Part shown: piece after piece, positions 3,930 through 61,157 of the stretch
Numbering within the stretch: the first letter of the stretch is position 1
Layout: each line of letters starts with the position of its first letter
Sequence record: PX880101.1
Direction: 5' to 3' (one strand)
DNA: 64,000 bases
DNA from: a phage
Program-made: the position numbers and the translations under genes
Notes under the pieces: model-generated
Database searches by the model: none
Seen by the model: only the letters and a program-made list of their open reading frames with translations
What the model was told of the DNA's origin: nothing

Positions 3930-3960
3930 ATACGCATAAACTAACAGAGAGTGATGTATT

Positions 3961-4152
3961 ATGGTAATTTTTAACCGGGATGGTATCATAGTTAGACAGC
4001 ACCCGTTCCTTGAATACTATCAAATTGAGCAATGGTGCTACGGGGATTGCAGTCACTCCTATGGGCAAAGTTGGGGATATCGCACAGTTTTTGAATCAAC
4101 AGACCTTGACAAAGTAAGACAGAAAGTTTTAGAACTTATTAACAACAAGTGA
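3961..4152 (+). CDS. hypothetical small protein
   Basis: ORF downstream of consensus promoter. Confidence 0.4.
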   Translation: MVIFNRDGIIVRQHPFLEYYQIEQWCYGDCSHSYGQSWGYRTVFESTDLDKVRQKVLELINNK

Positions 4153-21051: not shown

Positions 21052-21106
21052 CTCAAATCTCCTTCATAGATAGTAAAAAGAGGGGCCTAAGCCCCCCTCT
21101 TTGTCA

Positions 21107-28283: not shown

Positions 28284-28345
28284 TCTCTCTACCTCTTTCT
28301 TAGTTTATTTCACTATGGCACATCCTTTGTGCCATATCTCAACTA

Positions 28346-31775: not shown

Positions 31776-31802
31776 TCATAAAAGCCCTCCGAAGAGGGCT
31801 TT
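31776..31802 (-). terminator. putative intrinsic terminator or attenuator on minus strand
   Basis: Hairpin agccctc-cgaa-gagggct with flanking T/A runs. Confidence 0.45.
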
Positions 31803-34514: not shown

Positions 34515-34686
34515 TGTTGCACCCCCTCTTCATCTTCATGATGTTTCTTTTCACGCTTGTGTTTTTTCTTAAGCTCAAGCGCAATCTCTTTCTTGTACGC
34601 CTTCTTCAAGGCTTTTTTAGCCATTTGGCACCTCCTCTGCTTTCATTACGGCAATTATAACCAACTCAACAAAGCTTTGTCAACAA

Positions 34687-35160
34687 CTAGTCTACCTGAA
34701 CCCAACCGCCTGATACTTTTTTAAACATTCTTTGGTTATCACTGCCTCGGAACGGTTTCTTGGTTGGTAAATCTTTTACATACTTACCGTCAATGATGAT
34801 ATCAGCCAGTTTAAGAACATCACTAGAGATATGGTCAAATGTGAACCCAGTATATACAAGAATAGTTTTCTTGTCACCAAATTTTTCCTTAATTTTCTCC
34901 ATCAGGCTAATAATATCTGGCTCATTATAGTATGCTAAGGGTTCTCCACCCAGTAGAGAGATACCGCACACAGACGGGTTATCTAAATCTGACAAGATTT
35001 TTTGCAAGTCTTCTTCAGTGAACTTCCTCCCCTTATCTTTTGACCAAAATGCCTGATTAAAGCAACCAGGGCAAGCGTGTGGGCACCCAGATACCCACAA
35101 GGCAGTTCTAATACCTGGTCCTTCGGTGTAAGATATTTCTGTGTATCCAGCAATGTTCAT
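34687..35160 (-). CDS. nrdG: anaerobic ribonucleotide reductase activating protein (radical SAM)
   Basis: Cys cluster GCPHACPGC near N-terminus, size ~157 aa, adjacent to nrdD. Confidence 0.8.
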   Translation of the reverse strand: MNIAGYTEISYTEGPGIRTALWVSGCPHACPGCFNQAFWSKDKGRKFTEEDLQKILSDLDNPSVCGISLLGGEPLAYYNEPDIISLMEKIKEKFGDKKTILVYTGFTFDHISSDVLKLADIIIDGKYVKDLPTKKPFRGSDNQRMFKKVSGGWVQVD

Positions 35161-35273
35161 AGATACTCCGCATCACATTTAGGGCAATGCCAAATAAAAT
35201 CGTCTAGTGCCTTGCACCAACGAAGATTACAACTACAGCCGCACTTGCAAATTTTATAAATACCTGATGACAT
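35157..35273 (-). CDS. small Cys-rich zinc-ribbon protein (38 codons) between nrdD and nrdG
   Basis: Hand translation MSSGIYKICKCGCSCNLRWCKALDDFIWHCPKCDAEYL; stop overlaps nrdG start (ATGA). Confidence 0.35.
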   Translation of the reverse strand: MSSGIYKICKCGCSCNLRWCKALDDFIWHCPKCDAEYL

Positions 35274-35336
35274 ACTGCACCTCCTAGCTCACTGTGTGTC
35301 AATAATATGCCACATCCTTGTGGCTTTTGTCAAGAA

Positions 35337-37460
35337 TCAGCAACCACAACTTCCGTAGTGCTTAACTCGCTCGATAACTTCCGCTTGCTTACCTTTATTG
35401 TAAGGACGGGAGTTAGGACTGGAAAGGTATCCAGACACACGTCGAATTACACTGATCGTTCCCTCTTCATGGTTTCCACACTCTGGGCATACAAAGCCTT
35501 TAGCTGTTGCACTGAACTCACCAGAGAAACCACACTTGAGACATTTATCCACAGGTTGGTTAATACCAAAATACATAATGTGTTTATACCCGAAGTCAAC
35601 AAGAGCCTCTAAAGCATCCAGGTTGTTTTTCAGGTTAGGTGTTTCTACGTATCCGATGTTGCCACCAGAGGAGATCATAGCAAAACCTTCCTCATACTCC
35701 CACTTATCAAAAGGAGAGCTATTTATCCATACTGGCTGATGGAAACTGTTGGTGAGATATTCATGCTCGTGCTTCAACACTTCCGGATATTCACGATCCA
35801 GACAGGTTGCAGCTTTATAGCATAGACTCTCAGAAGGAGTGCCGTACAAGCTAAATGCTAGTCTACTTTCCTTCTTGTATCGCTCACAAGCATCTCTCAT
35901 GTGCTGAAGGATTCCAAGAGCTAAAGCCTTGTCACCCTCTCTGCCCAAAATCTGACAGGTTTCATACACACCGATATACCCAATACTGATGGAAGCGTAC
36001 CCGTCATAGAAGAGTTTATCAATACTCTCTTCAGGATCCAGGCGAGCAAGAGCGCCTTCACACCACATGATGGGGTTCTGCCCTGCCTTTGTTCCTTTTA
36101 GACGATTAACCCTTACAAGGTGAGCCTCGTATGCAAGATCCAAGTATTCGTCAAGAACTGCAAAGAAATCAACACCTTCCGTCTTGGCTTTTGCCGCAAT
36201 CATTGGCAGGTTAAGGCTAACAACGCCTAAGTTAAATCTGCCAAGGTATTTCTCCTCGCCTGTTTCCAAGTCATTGTATTTGCTAAGAAAACTCCTGCAA
36301 CCCATGCTAGTTACTTTGCCATCTGTCGAGCCTGTCACTTTTCTATTTAGTGGTACAGATACGAAGTCAGGATAGATACGTTCTGCACAGCATTCCAGAG
36401 CTAATCGTTTCAAATCATAGTTAGGATCCCCAGGGTTCATGTTGACACCCTCTTCCAGGAAGAACAGCACTTTAGGGAACACAGGTGTGATACGTTCTTC
36501 ACCAAGACCCATTTTGTGGACTTTCAGGTAGTTTTTGGTAATCATTCTACCAAAGACCGAGGTATCCAGTCCTAAACTCAATGTGATGAATGGAGTTTGC
36601 CCGTTGACAGAAGTTAACGTGTTGATTTGATAGAGCAAAGTCTGCATGCTGTCAAATACGTCTTTATCTGTCATTTGCATTGCAACAGTTTCAGCATCCG
36701 GCAACCAATGTTCCTGGCAAAATTTAAGGTTCTTCTCATAGGTTGCTTCAGCATACTGTGCCAGATAATGATCAATATGGCTCATAGTCTGACCACCATA
36801 TTGAGCACTAGCTACCGCACTAGAGATTTGGCTAAGGATTGTTGTTGCAACCCCTATTGACTTCGGCTTACTGACATAGGCGTTACCAATGTTGAATCCG
36901 TTTTCCAACATATCTGGATAATTTACCAAACAACAGTTTGTTAACGGACTGATCAAGTAGTCAAGATCATGCACATGGATGAATCCTTTATTGTGCTCTT
37001 CGGAGACACGGTCTGGCAGGATCTGTGTTGATGCAAGGTGTTTGCTAAGAATACCTGCAAGCAGGTCGCGATGAGTGTGTACATGATTAGTAGGCTTATT
37101 TGCGTTTTCTTTTGTAAATTCATCACAAGTTCGATCCAAGAAGCCACTAATATCTGCAAGCAGTTTTCCACCTGCCTCTCTGTTATTATCTCTTGTCTGT
37201 CTATACTGGATGTATTCTCTGGCTGCACATTTTAAACCCATATCCATAAGAGCATCTTCAACAAGGATATGGATATTTTTTACAGAGATCGTGCACTGGT
37301 CGGTTGGTAGATTGTTAGCAACAACTTCATTAACCGCGCAGGCGATCCGGTAAGCTTCTTCTTCAGTATGTCCAGACTCAAGTAAGGCGGACTCTGCCGC
37401 CTTGATCACCTTAATTCCGTTATAGAACTCTTCTCTACCGTCCCGTTTTACAACTTTCAC
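35337..37460 (-). CDS. nrdD: anaerobic ribonucleoside-triphosphate reductase (class III)
   Basis: C-terminal glycyl-radical motif RRVSGYL, zinc ribbon CLKCG...CPECG, N-terminal ATP-cone, 707 aa. Confidence 0.9.
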   Translation of the reverse strand: MKVVKRDGREEFYNGIKVIKAAESALLESGHTEEEAYRIACAVNEVVANNLPTDQCTISVKNIHILVEDALMDMGLKCAAREYIQYRQTRDNNREAGGKLLADISGFLDRTCDEFTKENANKPTNHVHTHRDLLAGILSKHLASTQILPDRVSEEHNKGFIHVHDLDYLISPLTNCCLVNYPDMLENGFNIGNAYVSKPKSIGVATTILSQISSAVASAQYGGQTMSHIDHYLAQYAEATYEKNLKFCQEHWLPDAETVAMQMTDKDVFDSMQTLLYQINTLTSVNGQTPFITLSLGLDTSVFGRMITKNYLKVHKMGLGEERITPVFPKVLFFLEEGVNMNPGDPNYDLKRLALECCAERIYPDFVSVPLNRKVTGSTDGKVTSMGCRSFLSKYNDLETGEEKYLGRFNLGVVSLNLPMIAAKAKTEGVDFFAVLDEYLDLAYEAHLVRVNRLKGTKAGQNPIMWCEGALARLDPEESIDKLFYDGYASISIGYIGVYETCQILGREGDKALALGILQHMRDACERYKKESRLAFSLYGTPSESLCYKAATCLDREYPEVLKHEHEYLTNSFHQPVWINSSPFDKWEYEEGFAMISSGGNIGYVETPNLKNNLDALEALVDFGYKHIMYFGINQPVDKCLKCGFSGEFSATAKGFVCPECGNHEEGTISVIRRVSGYLSSPNSRPYNKGKQAEVIERVKHYGSCGC

Positions 37461-37735
37461 TTTTTCTCTCCAAAACCATTCTTAACAAAAGAGATGAAAT
37501 CGTCGGCACCGCCTATATGGACACTGTCAAGATCGCTTTCTAAGAAGATCTGCGGCAACGTTCTGGGGACAATTGGACTGCACTTCTCAATAAGCTCTTC
37601 TTTTGTGTAGCCCTCGCCAAGTGTCTTATATACAAAAGGCAGACCTTTGCTGATTGCAAATTCTTTTGCTCTGACACAATGTGGGCAGTTATCCTTACCG
37701 TAAATGATGATGAAAAAAGATTTTTCGCAGCTCAT
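37457..37735 (-). CDS. glutaredoxin / NrdH-like redoxin
   Basis: CPHC active site in thioredoxin-fold context (IIIYGKDNCPHCVRAK); overlaps nrdD start by 4 nt. Confidence 0.7.
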   Translation of the reverse strand: MSCEKSFFIIIYGKDNCPHCVRAKEFAISKGLPFVYKTLGEGYTKEELIEKCSPIVPRTLPQIFLESDLDSVHIGGADDFISFVKNGFGEKK

Positions 37736-37738
37736 ATA

Positions 37739-38827
37739 TTAAAACTCCCAAATTTCTTCTTCAGCGTCGTTAACAGTTGTGTTGACGCGGTAGTCAGTGT
37801 TCGACATTTCTTGGTTCGCCGTCTGTTGTAATGAAGGTTTCATCCACACCTGCATGAACGGTAGCGGGTCCTTTGTTGGCGGCACAAAGTCTTTGTCGAT
37901 GTCGTAGTAATCATAAATCGGTGAGCAGTTATAGTCAACCCACTCTTTAAGCAACGGTGAGTTAAGACCTATAATCGCTCTTCCTTCGCTGAAAATATAG
38001 TCACTCCAACCGTACTCTTTGGTTCGTACTTCATCAAAAATCTCTTTTAACTCCCCCTTTATCTCAAGGAAGCTTTTCTCCCATGCGGGATCATTAAGCA
38101 AGATATCAATGATGGCAAAATCACCTTTCGAATGTAGCATTTCGTCAAGCATGATTTTTTGAACAAGCTGCGCCACCTGAACAAAGATACCCTGTTCAGC
38201 TACTGCGAAAGTGCATGCAAAACTTGCAATAAACTCAATACTTTCCAGAGCTAAAAGCGCAAAAAGCGCTCTAAGAATGCATTTCCGCACAATATCTTCT
38301 TCAACACTAGAAGGATCCAAGCGGTATTTTGCACCAATAACCTCAAGCTCTTGCATGTATTTGACAATAACGCCGGATCTGCTCAGAACGTTTTGGTTTT
38401 CCTGAATCTCTTCTATAATCTCACGGGCATTGGGGAGGCATTGTCTAACAATCTCTGAGTAAGTTAGTGCGTGAAGAACTTCAATCTCTGACTGTTTCAT
38501 CAATAGAGTGAAAAGCTCACTATTAGTGATGAATGGTGAAAAGAGGCAGATGATCGATCTTGCCGCAACGCTATCAGCCTCCCATTGCCACATCAAGGTC
38601 TGCACCATCACGTCATAAGTTGACTTTGAGCATGTTACAAAATCTGAAATAGATTGCGACAAATCCACTTCATCCTCTGCCCAATCTTGCTCTTTTTGTT
38701 TTTTGTATAGTTCAAACAGTTGTGGATATTTTTTGTTGATAGAGTCGTACATACCCATTTGCTGTCCCAGAAACAGCGGATAGTCACCAGTTTTATGAGC
38801 GGTGTTCTCAGCATTAAATACAGCCAT
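37739..38827 (-). CDS. nrdB: ribonucleotide reductase class Ia small subunit
   Basis: Ferritin-like R2 pattern with conserved E/H residues; start set at ATG after agaggtag RBS rather than the upstream M that would overlap nrdA. Confidence 0.85.
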   Translation of the reverse strand: MAVFNAENTAHKTGDYPLFLGQQMGMYDSINKKYPQLFELYKKQKEQDWAEDEVDLSQSISDFVTCSKSTYDVMVQTLMWQWEADSVAARSIICLFSPFITNSELFTLLMKQSEIEVLHALTYSEIVRQCLPNAREIIEEIQENQNVLSRSGVIVKYMQELEVIGAKYRLDPSSVEEDIVRKCILRALFALLALESIEFIASFACTFAVAEQGIFVQVAQLVQKIMLDEMLHSKGDFAIIDILLNDPAWEKSFLEIKGELKEIFDEVRTKEYGWSDYIFSEGRAIIGLNSPLLKEWVDYNCSPIYDYYDIDKDFVPPTKDPLPFMQVWMKPSLQQTANQEMSNTDYRVNTTVNDAEEEIWEF

Positions 38828-38844
38828 TATTCTACCTCTAAAAT

Positions 38845-38858
38845 GGGGCCGAAGCCCC
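38845..38858 (-). promoter_or_regulatory. intergenic hairpin between nrdA stop and nrdB start
   Basis: ggggccgaagcccc perfect stem-loop. Confidence 0.4.
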
Positions 38859-38865
38859 TTTAAAA

Positions 38866-41181
38866 TTATAGTGCACAGCTTTCGCAATACGGATCTTCAA
38901 CTGAACTATCTGCAATCAAAGGATAGTTCTTTCTGGTTTCATCTTCAGCCTGTTTCTTGGCATGAAGTTCCTCTGCCAAGGAGTCACCAGCACCAACCCT
39001 AGAGTTTAAATAATACCATGTCTTCATCCCGAATTTAGTGGCACGGATAAGGTACCCTAACTGCTCCTTCATTGAAATTTTACCATCTTTCAACTTGGTG
39101 TAGTCTATGTATAAATCCGCGCTGATTGCCTGACCTGTGAATTTTTGAATCACGGCATACATATCGATCATGTCGTTAGTATCAACGTCCCAAGCCGAGG
39201 TGTAATACTCTTTCAACTCATCATAGTCAGGAACGATAAACAGCACCTGCCCTTGTGGCGACTTTTTAAAGATAATGTGCTCACGGACAGGATAAACCCC
39301 GTTAGTGGTGTTTGTTGCCAGCGAAGAGCTTTCATTAGGCATATATGCTTCAAGAACGCTATTACGTAGCCCACCATTCTCAATGATTTCTTTACGTAAC
39401 CCTTCCCAATCCTGTTTAAGAGAAGGATCTTTCACCACGCTATCGACCTCTTTGTTATAGGTGTCGATTGGTAACCAACCTTCTGGATATTTTGTTTTAT
39501 GCATCCACTCGCAGACACCACGCTCTTTTGCCAACCGTAAACTTGCCTTATGCAAGCTGTAGCTGTGAAGTTCTGCAAGATCGTGAACGAGCTGTTTACT
39601 TTCAGGAGACCCGTAAGTAACCTTGTGGCTGGCAATAAAATGTGCAACATTGGTAAGGCCAACCCCGATGGATCTGCGTTTTTTAACTGTGCTTTCCATA
39701 TTTTCATACGGATATGTCATGATTTCCATAACATTGTCAATCATAAGCACCGTATAGTATGCAACATCCTCATACTCCTCTGGAGTAACCCTCCCAGCTA
39801 CAAGAGATGACAGGAAGCACAATGCAACCTCTCCATCATCAGCATCGTACTTGAAGATATTACGCATATCTGAATAGCCTTTTGTCGGGAGGGCTATTTC
39901 TGCACACAGGTTGCTTGAATAGATCACATCTTTAAAAGGTGTATGTCTATTCATCTCATCTGTCCAGTATACGTACAGCCTTCCCACCTCAGTGCGCTGC
40001 GTGATCAGTTCAACAGCAAGATCTCTAGCTCGGATCCATGTTTTAGGAATACTGTCATCTTTAGCAATACGATCAACCTCTGCATCAAACTCCTCCATAG
40101 ACATGGTGAAGATACCCTCATGCAGTTGAGGCGCGTGCTTATAAGAAACAAGCATCCAATCTAAATTCTTAGCCACACGGTTGATAAACGACCTATTAAT
40201 ACCGATGGAGTAGTCCATGGTGTTGATTCTTTTTGAAGCAACAGTCATAGGGTTTCTCAAACGGATTAGCTCATCAATCTGCGGGTCCAGTGCAAGGAAT
40301 GATACTGTTGCAGAACCACCACGTGATTGTTGTCTGTTCTCCTTAACCCCAGCATCAATACCTCGATAATATGGAATCTTACCCATATGTTTAATAGTGT
40401 TACCACGAACACCATCGCCTGCAGATCTTGAGGATAAGTAGTAGCCGATACCTGCTTGGTTAACCGTCATTGTGTACGCAACTTCACGTGCCACACCAAT
40501 AGATTTTGCTGTATCGTCAGCTTTTATTACACAACAAGATGCATACCCTGTCTTACCTGTGCGCAGCCCGTTTAAGTACGGTGTTGGGGCATTGATCTTT
40601 AAGTCGGACAGATAAGTGTATAATTTTACAACATCGTTGATACGACGTTCTTTCGGCATATTCTTCATGACAGCCATTGCTATCCCCATAAACATCATCT
40701 GGGGAGATTCAAACAAGGTGTCTTTAAGAGTATCCTTGATCCCGTATTTGTCGCGAAACTGTTTAAGGACTGCATAGCCATAACCGAGATCTTTACTGTG
40801 GTCAATAACAGCGTCTAAAGTGTTTAGCTCGGTAAAGCTATAACCCATATCCTCCCAATAACCTTTCTCAACCATGTCATTGTAAAATGATGGTAAGGAA
40901 GGGATCTTTGTAAACCCTCCAAAAGCCTCTTTATAGATCTGACCAATAAGAACACGACCAGCCATACGGGAATGTGCTTCGTCTTTACGGCTAACACAAG
41001 AGTCTATAATAGCTTGGTTAACTTCTTTGGTTGTACATCCATCATACAACCGCTTGTAGGCATCCAGTGCAATATGTGACCAATTGCCGTTACCATCGTC
41101 ACCGAAAATAGCTGCCTTATTTAAACGTTCTGGATCGAATGCCACTTCACATCCGTTGCTTTTAATTACCTTGGTGATCAA
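38866..41181 (-). CDS. nrdA: ribonucleotide reductase class Ia large subunit
   Basis: N-terminal ATP-cone, active-site NLCAEIALPT motif, 771 aa. Confidence 0.9.
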   Translation of the reverse strand: MITKVIKSNGCEVAFDPERLNKAAIFGDDGNGNWSHIALDAYKRLYDGCTTKEVNQAIIDSCVSRKDEAHSRMAGRVLIGQIYKEAFGGFTKIPSLPSFYNDMVEKGYWEDMGYSFTELNTLDAVIDHSKDLGYGYAVLKQFRDKYGIKDTLKDTLFESPQMMFMGIAMAVMKNMPKERRINDVVKLYTYLSDLKINAPTPYLNGLRTGKTGYASCCVIKADDTAKSIGVAREVAYTMTVNQAGIGYYLSSRSAGDGVRGNTIKHMGKIPYYRGIDAGVKENRQQSRGGSATVSFLALDPQIDELIRLRNPMTVASKRINTMDYSIGINRSFINRVAKNLDWMLVSYKHAPQLHEGIFTMSMEEFDAEVDRIAKDDSIPKTWIRARDLAVELITQRTEVGRLYVYWTDEMNRHTPFKDVIYSSNLCAEIALPTKGYSDMRNIFKYDADDGEVALCFLSSLVAGRVTPEEYEDVAYYTVLMIDNVMEIMTYPYENMESTVKKRRSIGVGLTNVAHFIASHKVTYGSPESKQLVHDLAELHSYSLHKASLRLAKERGVCEWMHKTKYPEGWLPIDTYNKEVDSVVKDPSLKQDWEGLRKEIIENGGLRNSVLEAYMPNESSSLATNTTNGVYPVREHIIFKKSPQGQVLFIVPDYDELKEYYTSAWDVDTNDMIDMYAVIQKFTGQAISADLYIDYTKLKDGKISMKEQLGYLIRATKFGMKTWYYLNSRVGAGDSLAEELHAKKQAEDETRKNYPLIADSSVEDPYCESCAL

Positions 41182-48211: not shown

Positions 48212-48543
48212 GCTTCCTCATCCTCCTCTCCTTCATCAGGAGCATAAGCCTTATCTTTGAACAGGACGAGAGAGCAAAGCTTAACATCTGTTTCCACACT
48301 GGTGAACATGCATAACCGCTCGCCCTCAATCAGCTCACAATCCTCTTTTAAAACAGCAGACCATACACGGTCATCTGCGTAATCATCCGTGTACAGGATG
48401 TATGAAATGGTGTCATCTTCGTACAACCGCCACATACCTGTGGCAACAATAAATGTATTTTTTGTTTTAATGGTCCCTGTTGTATGATCATCCTCAAAAA
48501 CAGCTTCCATAATTGCATTATCTACAGAATTTTTAGTCATCAA
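48208..48543 (-). CDS. hypothetical protein
   Basis: ORF. Confidence 0.45.
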   Translation of the reverse strand: MMTKNSVDNAIMEAVFEDDHTTGTIKTKNTFIVATGMWRLYEDDTISYILYTDDYADDRVWSAVLKEDCELIEGERLCMFTSVETDVKLCSLVLFKDKAYAPDEGEEDEEA

Positions 48544-57896: not shown

Positions 57897-57979
57897 CTGT
57901 CCGTGATACGGACACTACTGTCCGTCACGCGGACACATCTGCCCGTAATACGGACACTAACTGTCCGTGATACGGACAC
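57897..57979. repeat. four tandem ~19 bp units each containing inverted repeat GTCCGT-N-ACGGAC, ~21 bp period
   Basis: ctgtccgtgatacggacac at 57897, 57918 (variant), 57938 (variant), 57961. Confidence 0.7.
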
Positions 57980-60344: not shown

Positions 60345-60419
60345 GCCCTGTTAGCTTAGTGGATAAAGCAGCGGCCTTCTAAGCCGTTGACACTGGTTCG
60401 AGTCCAGTACGGGGTGCCA
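60345..60419 (+). tRNA. tRNA-Arg (anticodon TCT)
   Basis: Hand-folded cloverleaf: acceptor GCCCTGT/ACGGGGT with G-U pairs, loop CTTCTAA, T-loop TTCGAGT, encoded CCA. Confidence 0.75.
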
Positions 60420-60423
60420 AATT

Positions 60424-60510
60424 GGGGAGTTATCCCGTAGAGGTAGCGGTGTAGACTGTAAATCTATTGTCATTGCGACTCGGGTGGTTCGACTCCACCA
60501 CTCCCCACCA
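60424..60510 (+). tRNA. tRNA-Tyr (anticodon GTA)
   Basis: Acceptor GGGGAGT/ACTCCCC, loop CTGTAAA, long variable arm, T-loop TTCGACT, CCA. Confidence 0.8.
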
Positions 60511-60624
60511 AATTTATATTTTTAGATGCATAAATAATACAGATAATGGCATTGATATTTATCGTCGTTTATACTAGTCACTAACTGCTCGAAAATCAGT
60601 GTCATTATCAGTATAATTTATAAA

Positions 60625-60715
60625 GGAGGGTAGGGAGCAATGGTGCTCAAGCGGTCTTGAAAACCGTCCCGTTGGGTATGACTCGATGATGGTTCGATTC
60701 CATTACTCTCCGCCA
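60625..60715 (+). tRNA. tRNA-Ser (anticodon TGA)
   Basis: Acceptor GGAGGGT/ACTCTCC, loop CTTGAAA, long variable arm, T-loop TTCGATT, CCA. Confidence 0.7.
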
Positions 60716-60813
60716 CATTGTTGACCTTGTAATTAAGCGAAAGCCGGAAGCAGAACCGGATTATCAAATGTTACAGTCGTCATCGCCGACTAGCAACATG
60801 GTCAACATACTGA

Positions 60814-60912
60814 GCTAGGTAAGCCCTTTGGCAAGGGCGAGGATTTTTAATCCTGAAAATAGACGAGGTAGTAGTTGAATACATAGGTGGTTCGATTCCA
60901 TCACCTAGCACC
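60814..60912 (+). tRNA. aberrant tRNA-like element (possible Lys-TTT loop) with ~29 nt insertion before the T-arm
   Basis: Perfect acceptor GCTAGGT/ACCTAGC, D-arm GCCC-TTTGGCAA-GGGC, T-loop GGTTCGATTCC, but oversized variable region and imperfect anticodon stem; no encoded CCA. Confidence 0.35.
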
Positions 60913-60917
60913 TTTTT

Positions 60918-60993
60918 GCTGATGTAGCACAATCGGTAGTGCAATTGATTTGTAATCAATAGGTTGTAGGTTCAAGTCCTGCCATCAGCACCA
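60918..60993 (+). tRNA. tRNA-Thr (anticodon TGT)
   Basis: Acceptor GCTGATG/CATCAGC, D-arm GCAC/GTGC, loop TTTGTAA, T-loop TTCAAGT, CCA. Confidence 0.8.
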
Positions 60994-60994
60994 A

Positions 60995-61069
60995 GGCCCT
61001 GTAGCTGGAAGGTTCAAGCAAGCGACTCATAATCGCCAGACGGTGGTTCAATTCCACCCAGGGCCACCA
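60995..61069 (+). tRNA. tRNA-Met (anticodon CAT; could be Ile-lysidine type)
   Basis: Acceptor GGCCCTG/CAGGGCC, loop CTCATAA, T-loop TTCAATT, CCA; no initiator-type features. Confidence 0.7.
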
Positions 61070-61080
61070 AATAATAAATA

Positions 61081-61157
61081 CTCCGCGTAGCTCAGCTTGG
61101 TAGAGCGCCTGATTTGGGATCAGGAGGTCGAGTGTTCGAATCACTCCGTGGAGACCA
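61081..61157 (+). tRNA. tRNA-Pro (anticodon TGG)
   Basis: Acceptor CTCCGCG/CGTGGAG (C1:G72), D-arm GCTC/GAGC, loop TTTGGGA, T-loop TTCGAAT, CCA. Confidence 0.75.

Follow-up and report, generated by a model that had tools for sequence, protein, structure and literature searches.

What, if anything, does the nucleotide-metabolism block of an rV5-like phage carry beyond its textbook enzymes? We have considered this for a 64,000-nucleotide (nt) stretch of phage DNA (sequence record PX880101.1; hereafter the window), in which positions 34687-41181 are bounded precisely by the stop codon of nrdG and the start codon of nrdA, on the minus strand. In the order of transcription, and all on that strand, the genes are nrdA, nrdB, a glutaredoxin gene, nrdD, a Cys-rich open reading frame (ORF) for a protein of 38 amino acids (aa) and nrdG, with a hairpin between nrdA and nrdB. 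The phage is an rV5-like E. coli phage of the genus Vequintavirus; over the 6.7 kb of the block its identity to deposited genomes is 99.9%, with 118 records aligning to 80% or more of this length. The initial annotation considered the module well known, and rightly so, as this is a textbook block for the supply of deoxynucleoside triphosphates (dNTPs) that has been sequenced many times already. The module, the hairpin (as t109) and the small ORF (as an annotated coding sequence [CDS] and as PHROG 20137) are all in the public record. What we add is the proof, by comparison, that the product of the small ORF is a protein under constraint, an outline of how far the gene is distributed and of its cassette-like mobility, and the finding that sequence provides no detectable basis for the label "ribonucleotide reductase" under which the family is entered in PHROG 20137 and in several GenBank records; this label should not be propagated. 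Taken as a whole, we consider it likely that the locus is an ordinary early dNTP-supply block of an rV5-like myovirus, with a hairpin that would act as a leaky terminator and/or 3'-exonuclease barrier and a genuine 38-codon cassette gene for a probably metal-binding protein.

On comparative evidence, the 38-codon ORF is a genuine protein-coding gene under strong purifying selection. A tblastn search recovered full-length copies from 121 phage records, and in many genomes the ORF is already annotated as a CDS ("hypothetical protein"); its product matches PHROG 20137 with an E value of 4.7e-30. The alignment shows no change at any of the seven Cys, nor at N16-L-R-W19, L23-D-D25, I27, W28, and P31. 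Comparison of the window with the sister phage L006 over 26 shared codons gave 11 synonymous and 3 non-synonymous differences (proportion of synonymous sites changed [pS], 0.85; of non-synonymous sites [pN], 0.046), and over all cross-lineage pairs pN/pS was 0.05 to 0.16, with synonymous sites near saturation. The core of the protein is about 88% identical across lineages in which NrdG is 52 to 55% and NrdD 70% identical; few products of the block are as strongly conserved. The doubt that the ORF might not be conserved in related phages is thereby removed.

In the window the Shine-Dalgarno sequence AGGAGG lies 6 nt before the ATG, and four upstream regions that are otherwise unrelated to one another each place such a sequence at a distance of 6 to 8 nt from the start codon. 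In rV5, as in L096, a 140-kb contig with a 41-aa form of the protein, the ORF is intact though extra ORFs part it from nrdG, and in Alma only the last three codons have been replaced, so that the ORF is extended. The GenBank record of rV5 has a 75-aa "membrane protein" (ORF114; L015 1136-1363) in another frame across the small ORF; this frame is not open in the window, and the call is probably a mis-annotation. A natural deletion was also seen: in an ENA contig of 1473 nt (P0009) residues 1 to 20 of the small protein run in frame into the C-terminal half of a gp116-like protein, so that the micro-protein has been destroyed in at least one sampled genome.

How far does the gene extend? A word-indexed search of 5.8 billion proteins, with the small protein and five upstream in-frame codons as the query, and an exhaustive HMMER search, with the 38-aa protein, of 1.84 billion representative sequences both returned only close relatives; two long HMMER matches (P0010 and P0012) were discarded as low-complexity repeat proteins. 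The family is very small and is made up of Vequintavirus copies, those of two sister lineages of about 140 kb, and one copy in an unrelated podovirus, vB_EcoP_ACG-C91. The sister phages of about 136 kb (L006, L014, and L007) carry forms of 53 to 54 aa with an N-terminal extension rich in Lys and Glu. A 38-aa protein with seven invariant Cys and no detectable relatives outside a narrow phage group poses a modest question.

The copy in ACG-C91 is informative in that this phage has no nrdDG. The homologue is located there between a gp1.7-like nucleotide kinase gene and the DNA ligase gene, and again an ATGA overlap is used. With identical flanks, the kinase-ligase slot of Vectrevirus genomes holds either the seven-Cys homologue (ACG-C91), an unrelated 38-aa CxxC...CxxC ORF with an acidic tail (K1E), or a 57-aa ORF without Cys (Mt1B1_P10), and all three alternative mini-ORFs overlap the ligase start as ATGA (L003 3998-4108, L101 599-715, and L102 600-770). 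Judged from these arrangements, the ACG-C91 copy is a transferred one, and the small gene moves between phages as a precise one-ORF cassette. It would appear to behave as an exchangeable cassette of nucleotide-metabolism clusters rather than as an indispensable member of the class III system.

As to what the protein is, its Cys pattern, Cx(1-2)CxCxC-x4-C-x9-CPxC, suggests two knuckles. At the first of these, Vequintavirus and ACG-C91 have CKC where the sister lineages have CKDC or CKHC; the second, CPKC, is invariant. The window protein has no match in Pfam (searched at E ≤ 10) or NCBIfam. Weak profile matches to zinc-ribbon families were obtained with variants of the protein only, one of them reaching E = 0.003 against Zn_ribbon_NUD, and a PDB sequence search returned only a small CPxCG zinc-finger micro-protein (E = 0.15). 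The most economical reading, and a plausible one given the predicted fold considered below, is a metal-binding, zinc-ribbon-like mini-protein. Such a product would fold around a metal ion in the manner of a zinc ribbon and act by binding another protein. A SCIFF or ranthipeptide precursor of a ribosomally synthesized and post-translationally modified peptide (RiPP) was considered and rejected, as the neighboring radical-SAM protein is the 157-aa NrdG equivalog and its scores against RiPP-maturase and SPASM models are far below the cut-offs; the ACG-C91 peptide, which has no radical-SAM neighbor, also disfavors it. Rfam at E ≤ 1 gave nothing usable over the region.

The second element of interest pointed out in the initial annotation, the hairpin between nrdA and nrdB, is real and strictly conserved. 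The 14-mer GGGGCCGAAGCCCC occupies positions 38845-38858 (the coding strand reads GGGGCUUCGGCCCC) and in mRNA would form GGGGC-UUCG-GCCCC with a free energy of -11.1 kcal/mol; 0.00 matches are expected in shuffled sequence. It is not new, having been a predicted terminator since 2013: Table S4 of the rV5 paper lists "t109 GGGGCTTCG GCCCC ATTTT, -14.2" as a rho-independent terminator predicted by ARNold (PMC3606486). The identical hairpin is present in Vequintavirus, in three Seunavirus phages (GAP31, SSE121, and 4MG) and in Klebsiella phage K54_rec3, that is, in two genera of the Vequintavirinae and one unclassified Klebsiella phage. In the Seunavirus phages and K54_rec3 the nrdA/nrdB DNA is only about 74% identical to that of the window and the flanks of the hairpin differ, and it is always followed by 4 to 5 T. 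The phi92-like phage PD114 has a near-identical GGGC-UUCG-GCCC with T6 before nrdB, where the upstream gene is not nrdA, and Erwinia phage SunLIRen has an unrelated hairpin with T6 at the nrdA/nrdB junction; no such hairpin was found in ICP1 and Felix-O1-like phages. From this distribution we conclude that the element is old and maintained.

The position of the hairpin constrains what it can do. The nrdB start codon follows only about 18 nt downstream of it, a distance that cannot accommodate a promoter, so that nrdB must be transcribed by read-through of the hairpin; the hairpin, if a terminator, must then be leaky. We infer that it serves as a leaky intrinsic terminator and/or as a barrier to 3' exonucleases that stabilizes the 3' end of the nrdA message. 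Either role would yield more, or longer-lived, nrdA message than nrdB message, and the suggestion of the initial annotation that the hairpin may tune the subunit ratio is a reasonable one. Other hairpins followed by T runs punctuate the same strand. One of these, at 31781-31802 (minus strand), is a terminator-like UUCG-loop element, AAAGCCCUC-UUCG-GAGGGCUUUU (-14.7 kcal/mol; z = -3.06), and equals t122 of rV5. A relative of the nrdA/nrdB 14-mer with one mismatch, GGGGCCTAAGCCCC, is found at 21082-21095, near the strand switch at about 21 kb.

Several observations weigh against this combined reading of the small protein and the hairpin. The first knuckle of the window protein is CxC and not CxxC, and seven Cys exceed the need of one Zn(Cys)4 site, so that the metal and its stoichiometry are not fixed by the pattern. 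An AlphaFold2 model from a 10-sequence alignment has three beta strands at low confidence (predicted local distance difference test score [pLDDT], 64), and the best Foldseek matches of this model, although zinc ribbons (Rpb9, the NUDIX N-terminal ribbon, and ZifS), all have E ≥ 1 and are taken here as a hint only. The stem of the hairpin has only 5 bp and its U tract only 4 U, and it was missed by our in-house terminator scan, which requires at least 5 T in 8. Its support consists of invariance and not of covariation, so that its conservation could reflect something besides RNA structure. Finally, the promoter match ahead of the small ORF (Table 1) agrees with the consensus at only 10 of 12 positions, and promoter-like sites are not enriched in the region (27 against 25.4 expected).

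The very short stem and the tract of only 4 U, together with the need for read-through to express nrdB, would also suit a hairpin that never terminates and is instead an RNA-stability or folding element, protecting a processed nrdA 3' end or insulating the nrdB ribosome-binding site. C(UUCG)G hairpins, which came to notice first in T4 mRNA, have exceptional stability (PMC4371310), and PD114 has the same hairpin before nrdB without nrdA upstream. However, a T run follows the hairpin in every phage that carries it, reaching T5 to T6 in some, and such a run is needed by an intrinsic terminator and not by a stabilizer; the ARNold call (PMC3606486) also speaks for termination. Nor is there significance in the extended fold around the hairpin by which the Shine-Dalgarno sequence would be hidden (z = -1.66). 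A pure stabilizer is in our estimate rather unlikely, and a leaky terminator and/or 3'-exonuclease barrier is the preferred reading.

It is tempting to view the seven-Cys protein as a dedicated third component of the class III reductase, either a metal or redox partner that loads or reduces the [4Fe-4S] cluster of NrdG or a protein that docks on NrdD or NrdG during generation of the glycyl radical. In every lineage of about 140 kb that carries it (Vequintavirus types A and B, L006/L014/L007, and L096) the gene sits between nrdD and nrdG, it overlaps nrdG through ATGA or GTGA in three arrangements, and its sequence has diverged far less than that of NrdG. Against this, nrdD and nrdG of the Seunavirus phage SSE121 overlap directly (ATGA) with no small ORF, and L017/L019 lack the ORF even though their NrdG is nearer to that of the window (63 to 65% identical) than is the NrdG of carriers such as L006. 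No small Cys-rich ORF precedes nrdG at 76 of 80 surveyed phage loci, and in ACG-C91 the gene adjoins DNA ligase in a phage without nrdDG. One or two further ORFs intervene between it and nrdG in rV5, Alma, and L096. A profile-profile comparison with the zinc ribbon of NrdD aligned only 9 columns around CPxC, for which reason an origin of the small ORF from that ribbon was also dropped. Neither does the protein match a rubredoxin or ferredoxin family in Pfam (E ≤ 10), NCBIfam (E ≤ 0.1), or the PDB sequence search, and these identities were rejected. We therefore regard a dedicated reductase component as quite improbable; position is all that suggests a functional link between the small protein and NrdG, and several of these observations weaken it.

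The four exceptions in the nrdG survey comprise two homologues and two unrelated kinds, namely, a 40-aa CxxC...CxxC ORF (L048) and a 114-aa protein (L030, L031, and L033). In most phages surveyed nrdD overlaps nrdG directly, and the notion of a general nrdG-associated micro-protein was dropped after the survey. The ORF of L048 (1336-1458) has an acidic tail, and 6 nt lie between its end and nrdG; its architecture, though not its sequence, recalls the K1E mini-ORF. A further version of the reductase idea, in which the micro-protein is an unrecognized, phage-specific accessory of the anaerobic enzyme that supplies or protects the NrdG iron-sulfur cluster or docks where the NrdD zinc ribbon meets the activase, and that in phages without nrdDG such as ACG-C91 would act on the host enzymes, we consider highly doubtful. 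Were the small protein to work with NrdG or NrdD, a textbook enzyme system would gain a component. Should its partner be a different host or phage protein, which we rank as more likely, it would be one more phage micro-protein of a large and poorly explored class.

Least tenable is the idea that the small ORF yields no functional protein and is instead regulatory RNA or DNA, an internal terminator or a leader ORF that delivers ribosomes to nrdG: the annotation of Murica does place a terminator at the hairpin UUGGUGCAAGGCACUAG followed by ACGAUUUUAU without calling an ORF, our in-house scan lists this site too, and the 3' end of the ORF carries a Shine-Dalgarno sequence and overlaps the next start codon, but the substitutions are protein-like in all respects given above (low pN/pS, synonymous sites at saturation, and Cys, Trp, and Pro residues that never change), the RNA of the ORF folds with a z-score of only -1.26, rV5 and L096 keep the complete ORF uncoupled from nrdG, and the internal hairpin decays to G-U pairs or mismatches in L006 and L007 and the T run is gone in ACG-C91 while the peptide is kept, all of which makes such a role extremely improbable. 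Since hairpin and T run decay while the peptide is kept, the Murica hairpin is best seen as a by-product of the codons for RWCKALDDFIW. A leader-peptide attenuator was likewise rejected, as the peptide is strongly constrained and the internal hairpin and T run are not conserved in L007 and ACG-C91.

The coordinates of the genes and of the elements between and beside them are collected in Table 1.

Table 1. Genes and sequence elements of the block and its downstream edge, in the direction of transcription
Feature	Position	Strand	Basis or remark
nrdA, class Ia alpha subunit, 771 aa	41181..38866	minus	TTG start; Pfam Ribonuc_red_lgC E=2e-100, Ribonuc_red_lgN E=7e-14
C(UUCG)G tetraloop hairpin + AUUUU	38858..38840	minus	nrdA-nrdB spacer, just 5' of the nrdB Shine-Dalgarno sequence GAGG
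nrdB, class Ia beta subunit, 362 aa	38827..37739	minus	ATG start; Pfam Ribonuc_red_sm E=7e-30
Glutaredoxin-fold redoxin, 92 aa, CPHC active site	37735..37457	minus	Pfam Glutaredoxin 34.1 bits, cut-off 22.9
nrdD, class III (anaerobic), 707 aa	37460..35337	minus	GTG start; Pfam NRDD E=1e-160, Gly_radical, ATP-cone
Predicted sigma-70-like promoter, TTGACA-N18-CATATT, TG before -10	35333..35304	minus	10/12 consensus positions
Palindrome GCCACA-AGGA-TGTGGC	35324..35309	minus	Inside the spacer of the promoter match
38-codon seven-Cys ORF, MSSGIYKICKCGCSCNLRWCKALDDFIWHCPKCDAEYL	35273..35157	minus	PHROG 20137; tblastn, alignment, pN/pS, CDS calls in relatives
nrdG, radical-SAM activase of NrdD, 157 aa, CPHACPGC	35160..34687	minus	TIGR02491; Pfam Fer4_12 E=1e-42
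Consensus promoter TTGACA-N18-TATAAT	34683..34654	minus	12/12 positions; directly after nrdG, marks the end of the module

The five large genes were assigned by Pfam above the gathering thresholds, and NrdG also by an NCBIfam equivalog, which bears out the identities proposed in the initial annotation. The class Ia domains score 337 (PF02867), 52 (PF00317), and 104.7 bits (PF00268), all above gathering score, and the nrdB start in the window is the one annotated in relatives. The C-terminal tail of NrdA, YCESCAL, holds a CxxC motif. In class Ia alpha subunits a C-terminal Cys pair shuttles reducing equivalents from a redoxin, and by analogy with this established knowledge the tail pair would have the same role here. 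The class III domains score 536 (PF13597), 82.9 (PF01228), and 50 bits (ATP-cone), and the C terminus of NrdD carries CxxC...CxxC (CLKCG...CPECG) and the glycyl-radical motif RRVSGYL. NrdG reaches 149.3 bits against TIGR02491 (NCBIfam; cut-off, 126.1), with CPHACPGC at residues 26 to 33, and is also matched by the Pfam Radical_SAM model. For the redoxin, which matches PF00462, the fold is assigned and the subfamily is not, because it scores 52.9 against a cut-off of 84 with the NCBIfam GrxA equivalog models. NrdA and NrdB with the glutaredoxin-fold reductant would serve aerobic growth, and NrdD with its radical-SAM activase would serve anaerobic growth in a gut host.

The nrdD gene is intact in the window and is split by homing-endonuclease genes (HNH, GIY-YIG, and DUF723-type) in many relatives, including slur12, magaca, SophiaRose, L006, and L096. 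Past the conserved RVKH, NrdD proteins of this phage group have tails with extra residues rich in Cys and His (HYGSCGC, HTNNGDCCSIY, HVGCCSDNDHCSI, and HVGNVDHCPLSK); we saw such tails in the window (35337-35360) and at loci L014, L017, L021, and L023, and most other phage NrdDs are without them. Vequintavirus-like nrdG occurs as two alleles, type A (MNIAGYTE...; window 34687-35160) and type B (MNVVNIIEC...; L015 1318-2175, L004 1615-2400, and L096 4142-4789). In the Vequintavirus copies (rV5 and Alma) the two types converge only at the C-terminal ~25 residues, and the type B of L096 differs there too. Type B goes with a basic ORF of 34 aa, to which rV5 and Alma add one of 78 aa (gp116 in rV5). 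Read from sequence, the two alleles provide evidence of mosaic recombination inside nrdG.

The initial annotation also described the genes as contiguous and translationally coupled, and this holds at three of the five junctions. The nrdB stop and the glutaredoxin start are 3 nt apart, the glutaredoxin gene overlaps nrdD as GTGA, and the small ORF overlaps nrdG as ATGA, with the nrdG Shine-Dalgarno sequence (GGAG) inside its last codons. It does not hold at nrdA/nrdB, where a 38-nt spacer contains the hairpin and nrdB has a Shine-Dalgarno sequence of its own (GAGG), nor at nrdD/small ORF, where a 63-nt spacer contains the sigma-70-like promoter match and a 6-bp palindrome. The TTG start of nrdA in turn overlaps the stop codon of the ORF upstream (TTGA). 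Every Vequintavirus copy examined retains the promoter match ahead of the small ORF; the promoter list of the rV5 paper (PMC3606486) does not include it. The small ORF would probably have its own sigma-70-type promoter, together with a strong ribosome-binding site, and would pass ribosomes on to nrdG through the ATGA overlap. The promoter after nrdG is P118 of the rV5 record and paper (PMC3606486).

The RNA fold of the nrdD/small-ORF spacer is not significant (z = -0.10). At the same place the distant relative L096 (about 3960-3980) has the palindrome GAGCACA-AGGA-TGTGCTC, with the outer pairs changed on both sides, and look-alikes of the palindrome occur at intergenic sites on the minus strand (28314-28336 and 48429-48444). 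As a repeated operator, GCCACA-N4-TGTGGC was rejected (3 matches in the window against 2.0 expected). Elsewhere in the window, positions 57898-57978, close to the strand switch at about 56 kb, are dense in overlapping inverted repeats of TGTCCGT/ACGGACA, of which at least five within 80 nt would form hairpins; this cluster could be an iteron-like or regulatory region. A cluster of six transfer RNA genes is found at 60345-61154 on the plus strand. Among the database records, several assigned to "Campylobacter phage" (MG065635, MG065646, and others; C12, D1, and C15) are 97 to 99.9% identical to E. coli rV5-like phages over the block, and the host label of these and like records looks doubtful.

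How does the locus compare with known systems? The window protein matches PHROG 20137, a 38-position family labeled "ribonucleotide reductase," over its full length, and HMMER, Pfam, NCBIfam, and the NrdD zinc-ribbon comparison gave no homology to any reductase. The label probably reflects the neighborhood or GenBank names such as JES2013 ORF108. Zinc-ribbon micro-proteins such as HVO_0758 of Haloferax, ZifS of Thermus, and the 38-aa ORF of K1E are of similar size, with a CPxC knuckle and a predicted three-stranded beta fold, and rank with the best sequence and fold matches of the small protein, none of which is significant; they have four Cys, whereas the window protein has seven invariant ones. 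The C(UUCG)G hairpins of T4 mRNA (PMC4371310) share with the nrdA-nrdB hairpin the loop, the closing pair, and the place between cistrons of a phage mRNA. In contrast to these, the window hairpin, known here from its sequence, has a 5-bp stem and a short U tract, like a weak intrinsic terminator.

The closest counterpart is the nucleotide-metabolism cluster gp109-117 of rV5 (DQ832317; Kropinski et al. 2013, PMC3606486), which has the same genes in the same order, the identical hairpin t109, a P118 that differs from the window promoter by one spacer base, and a small ORF 92% identical to that of the window. It differs in its other nrdG allele and in two extra ORFs (34 aa, basic; and gp116, 78 aa) between the small ORF and nrdG. 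As in the comparison made in the rV5 paper (PMC3606486), the nrdAB and nrdDG systems of E. coli and T4 represent the same enzyme families and the same logic, with an aerobic class Ia and an anaerobic class III enzyme, a redoxin, and an activase encoded just after nrdD. Unlike these systems, the window has all five genes in one block and a micro-gene between nrdD and nrdG.

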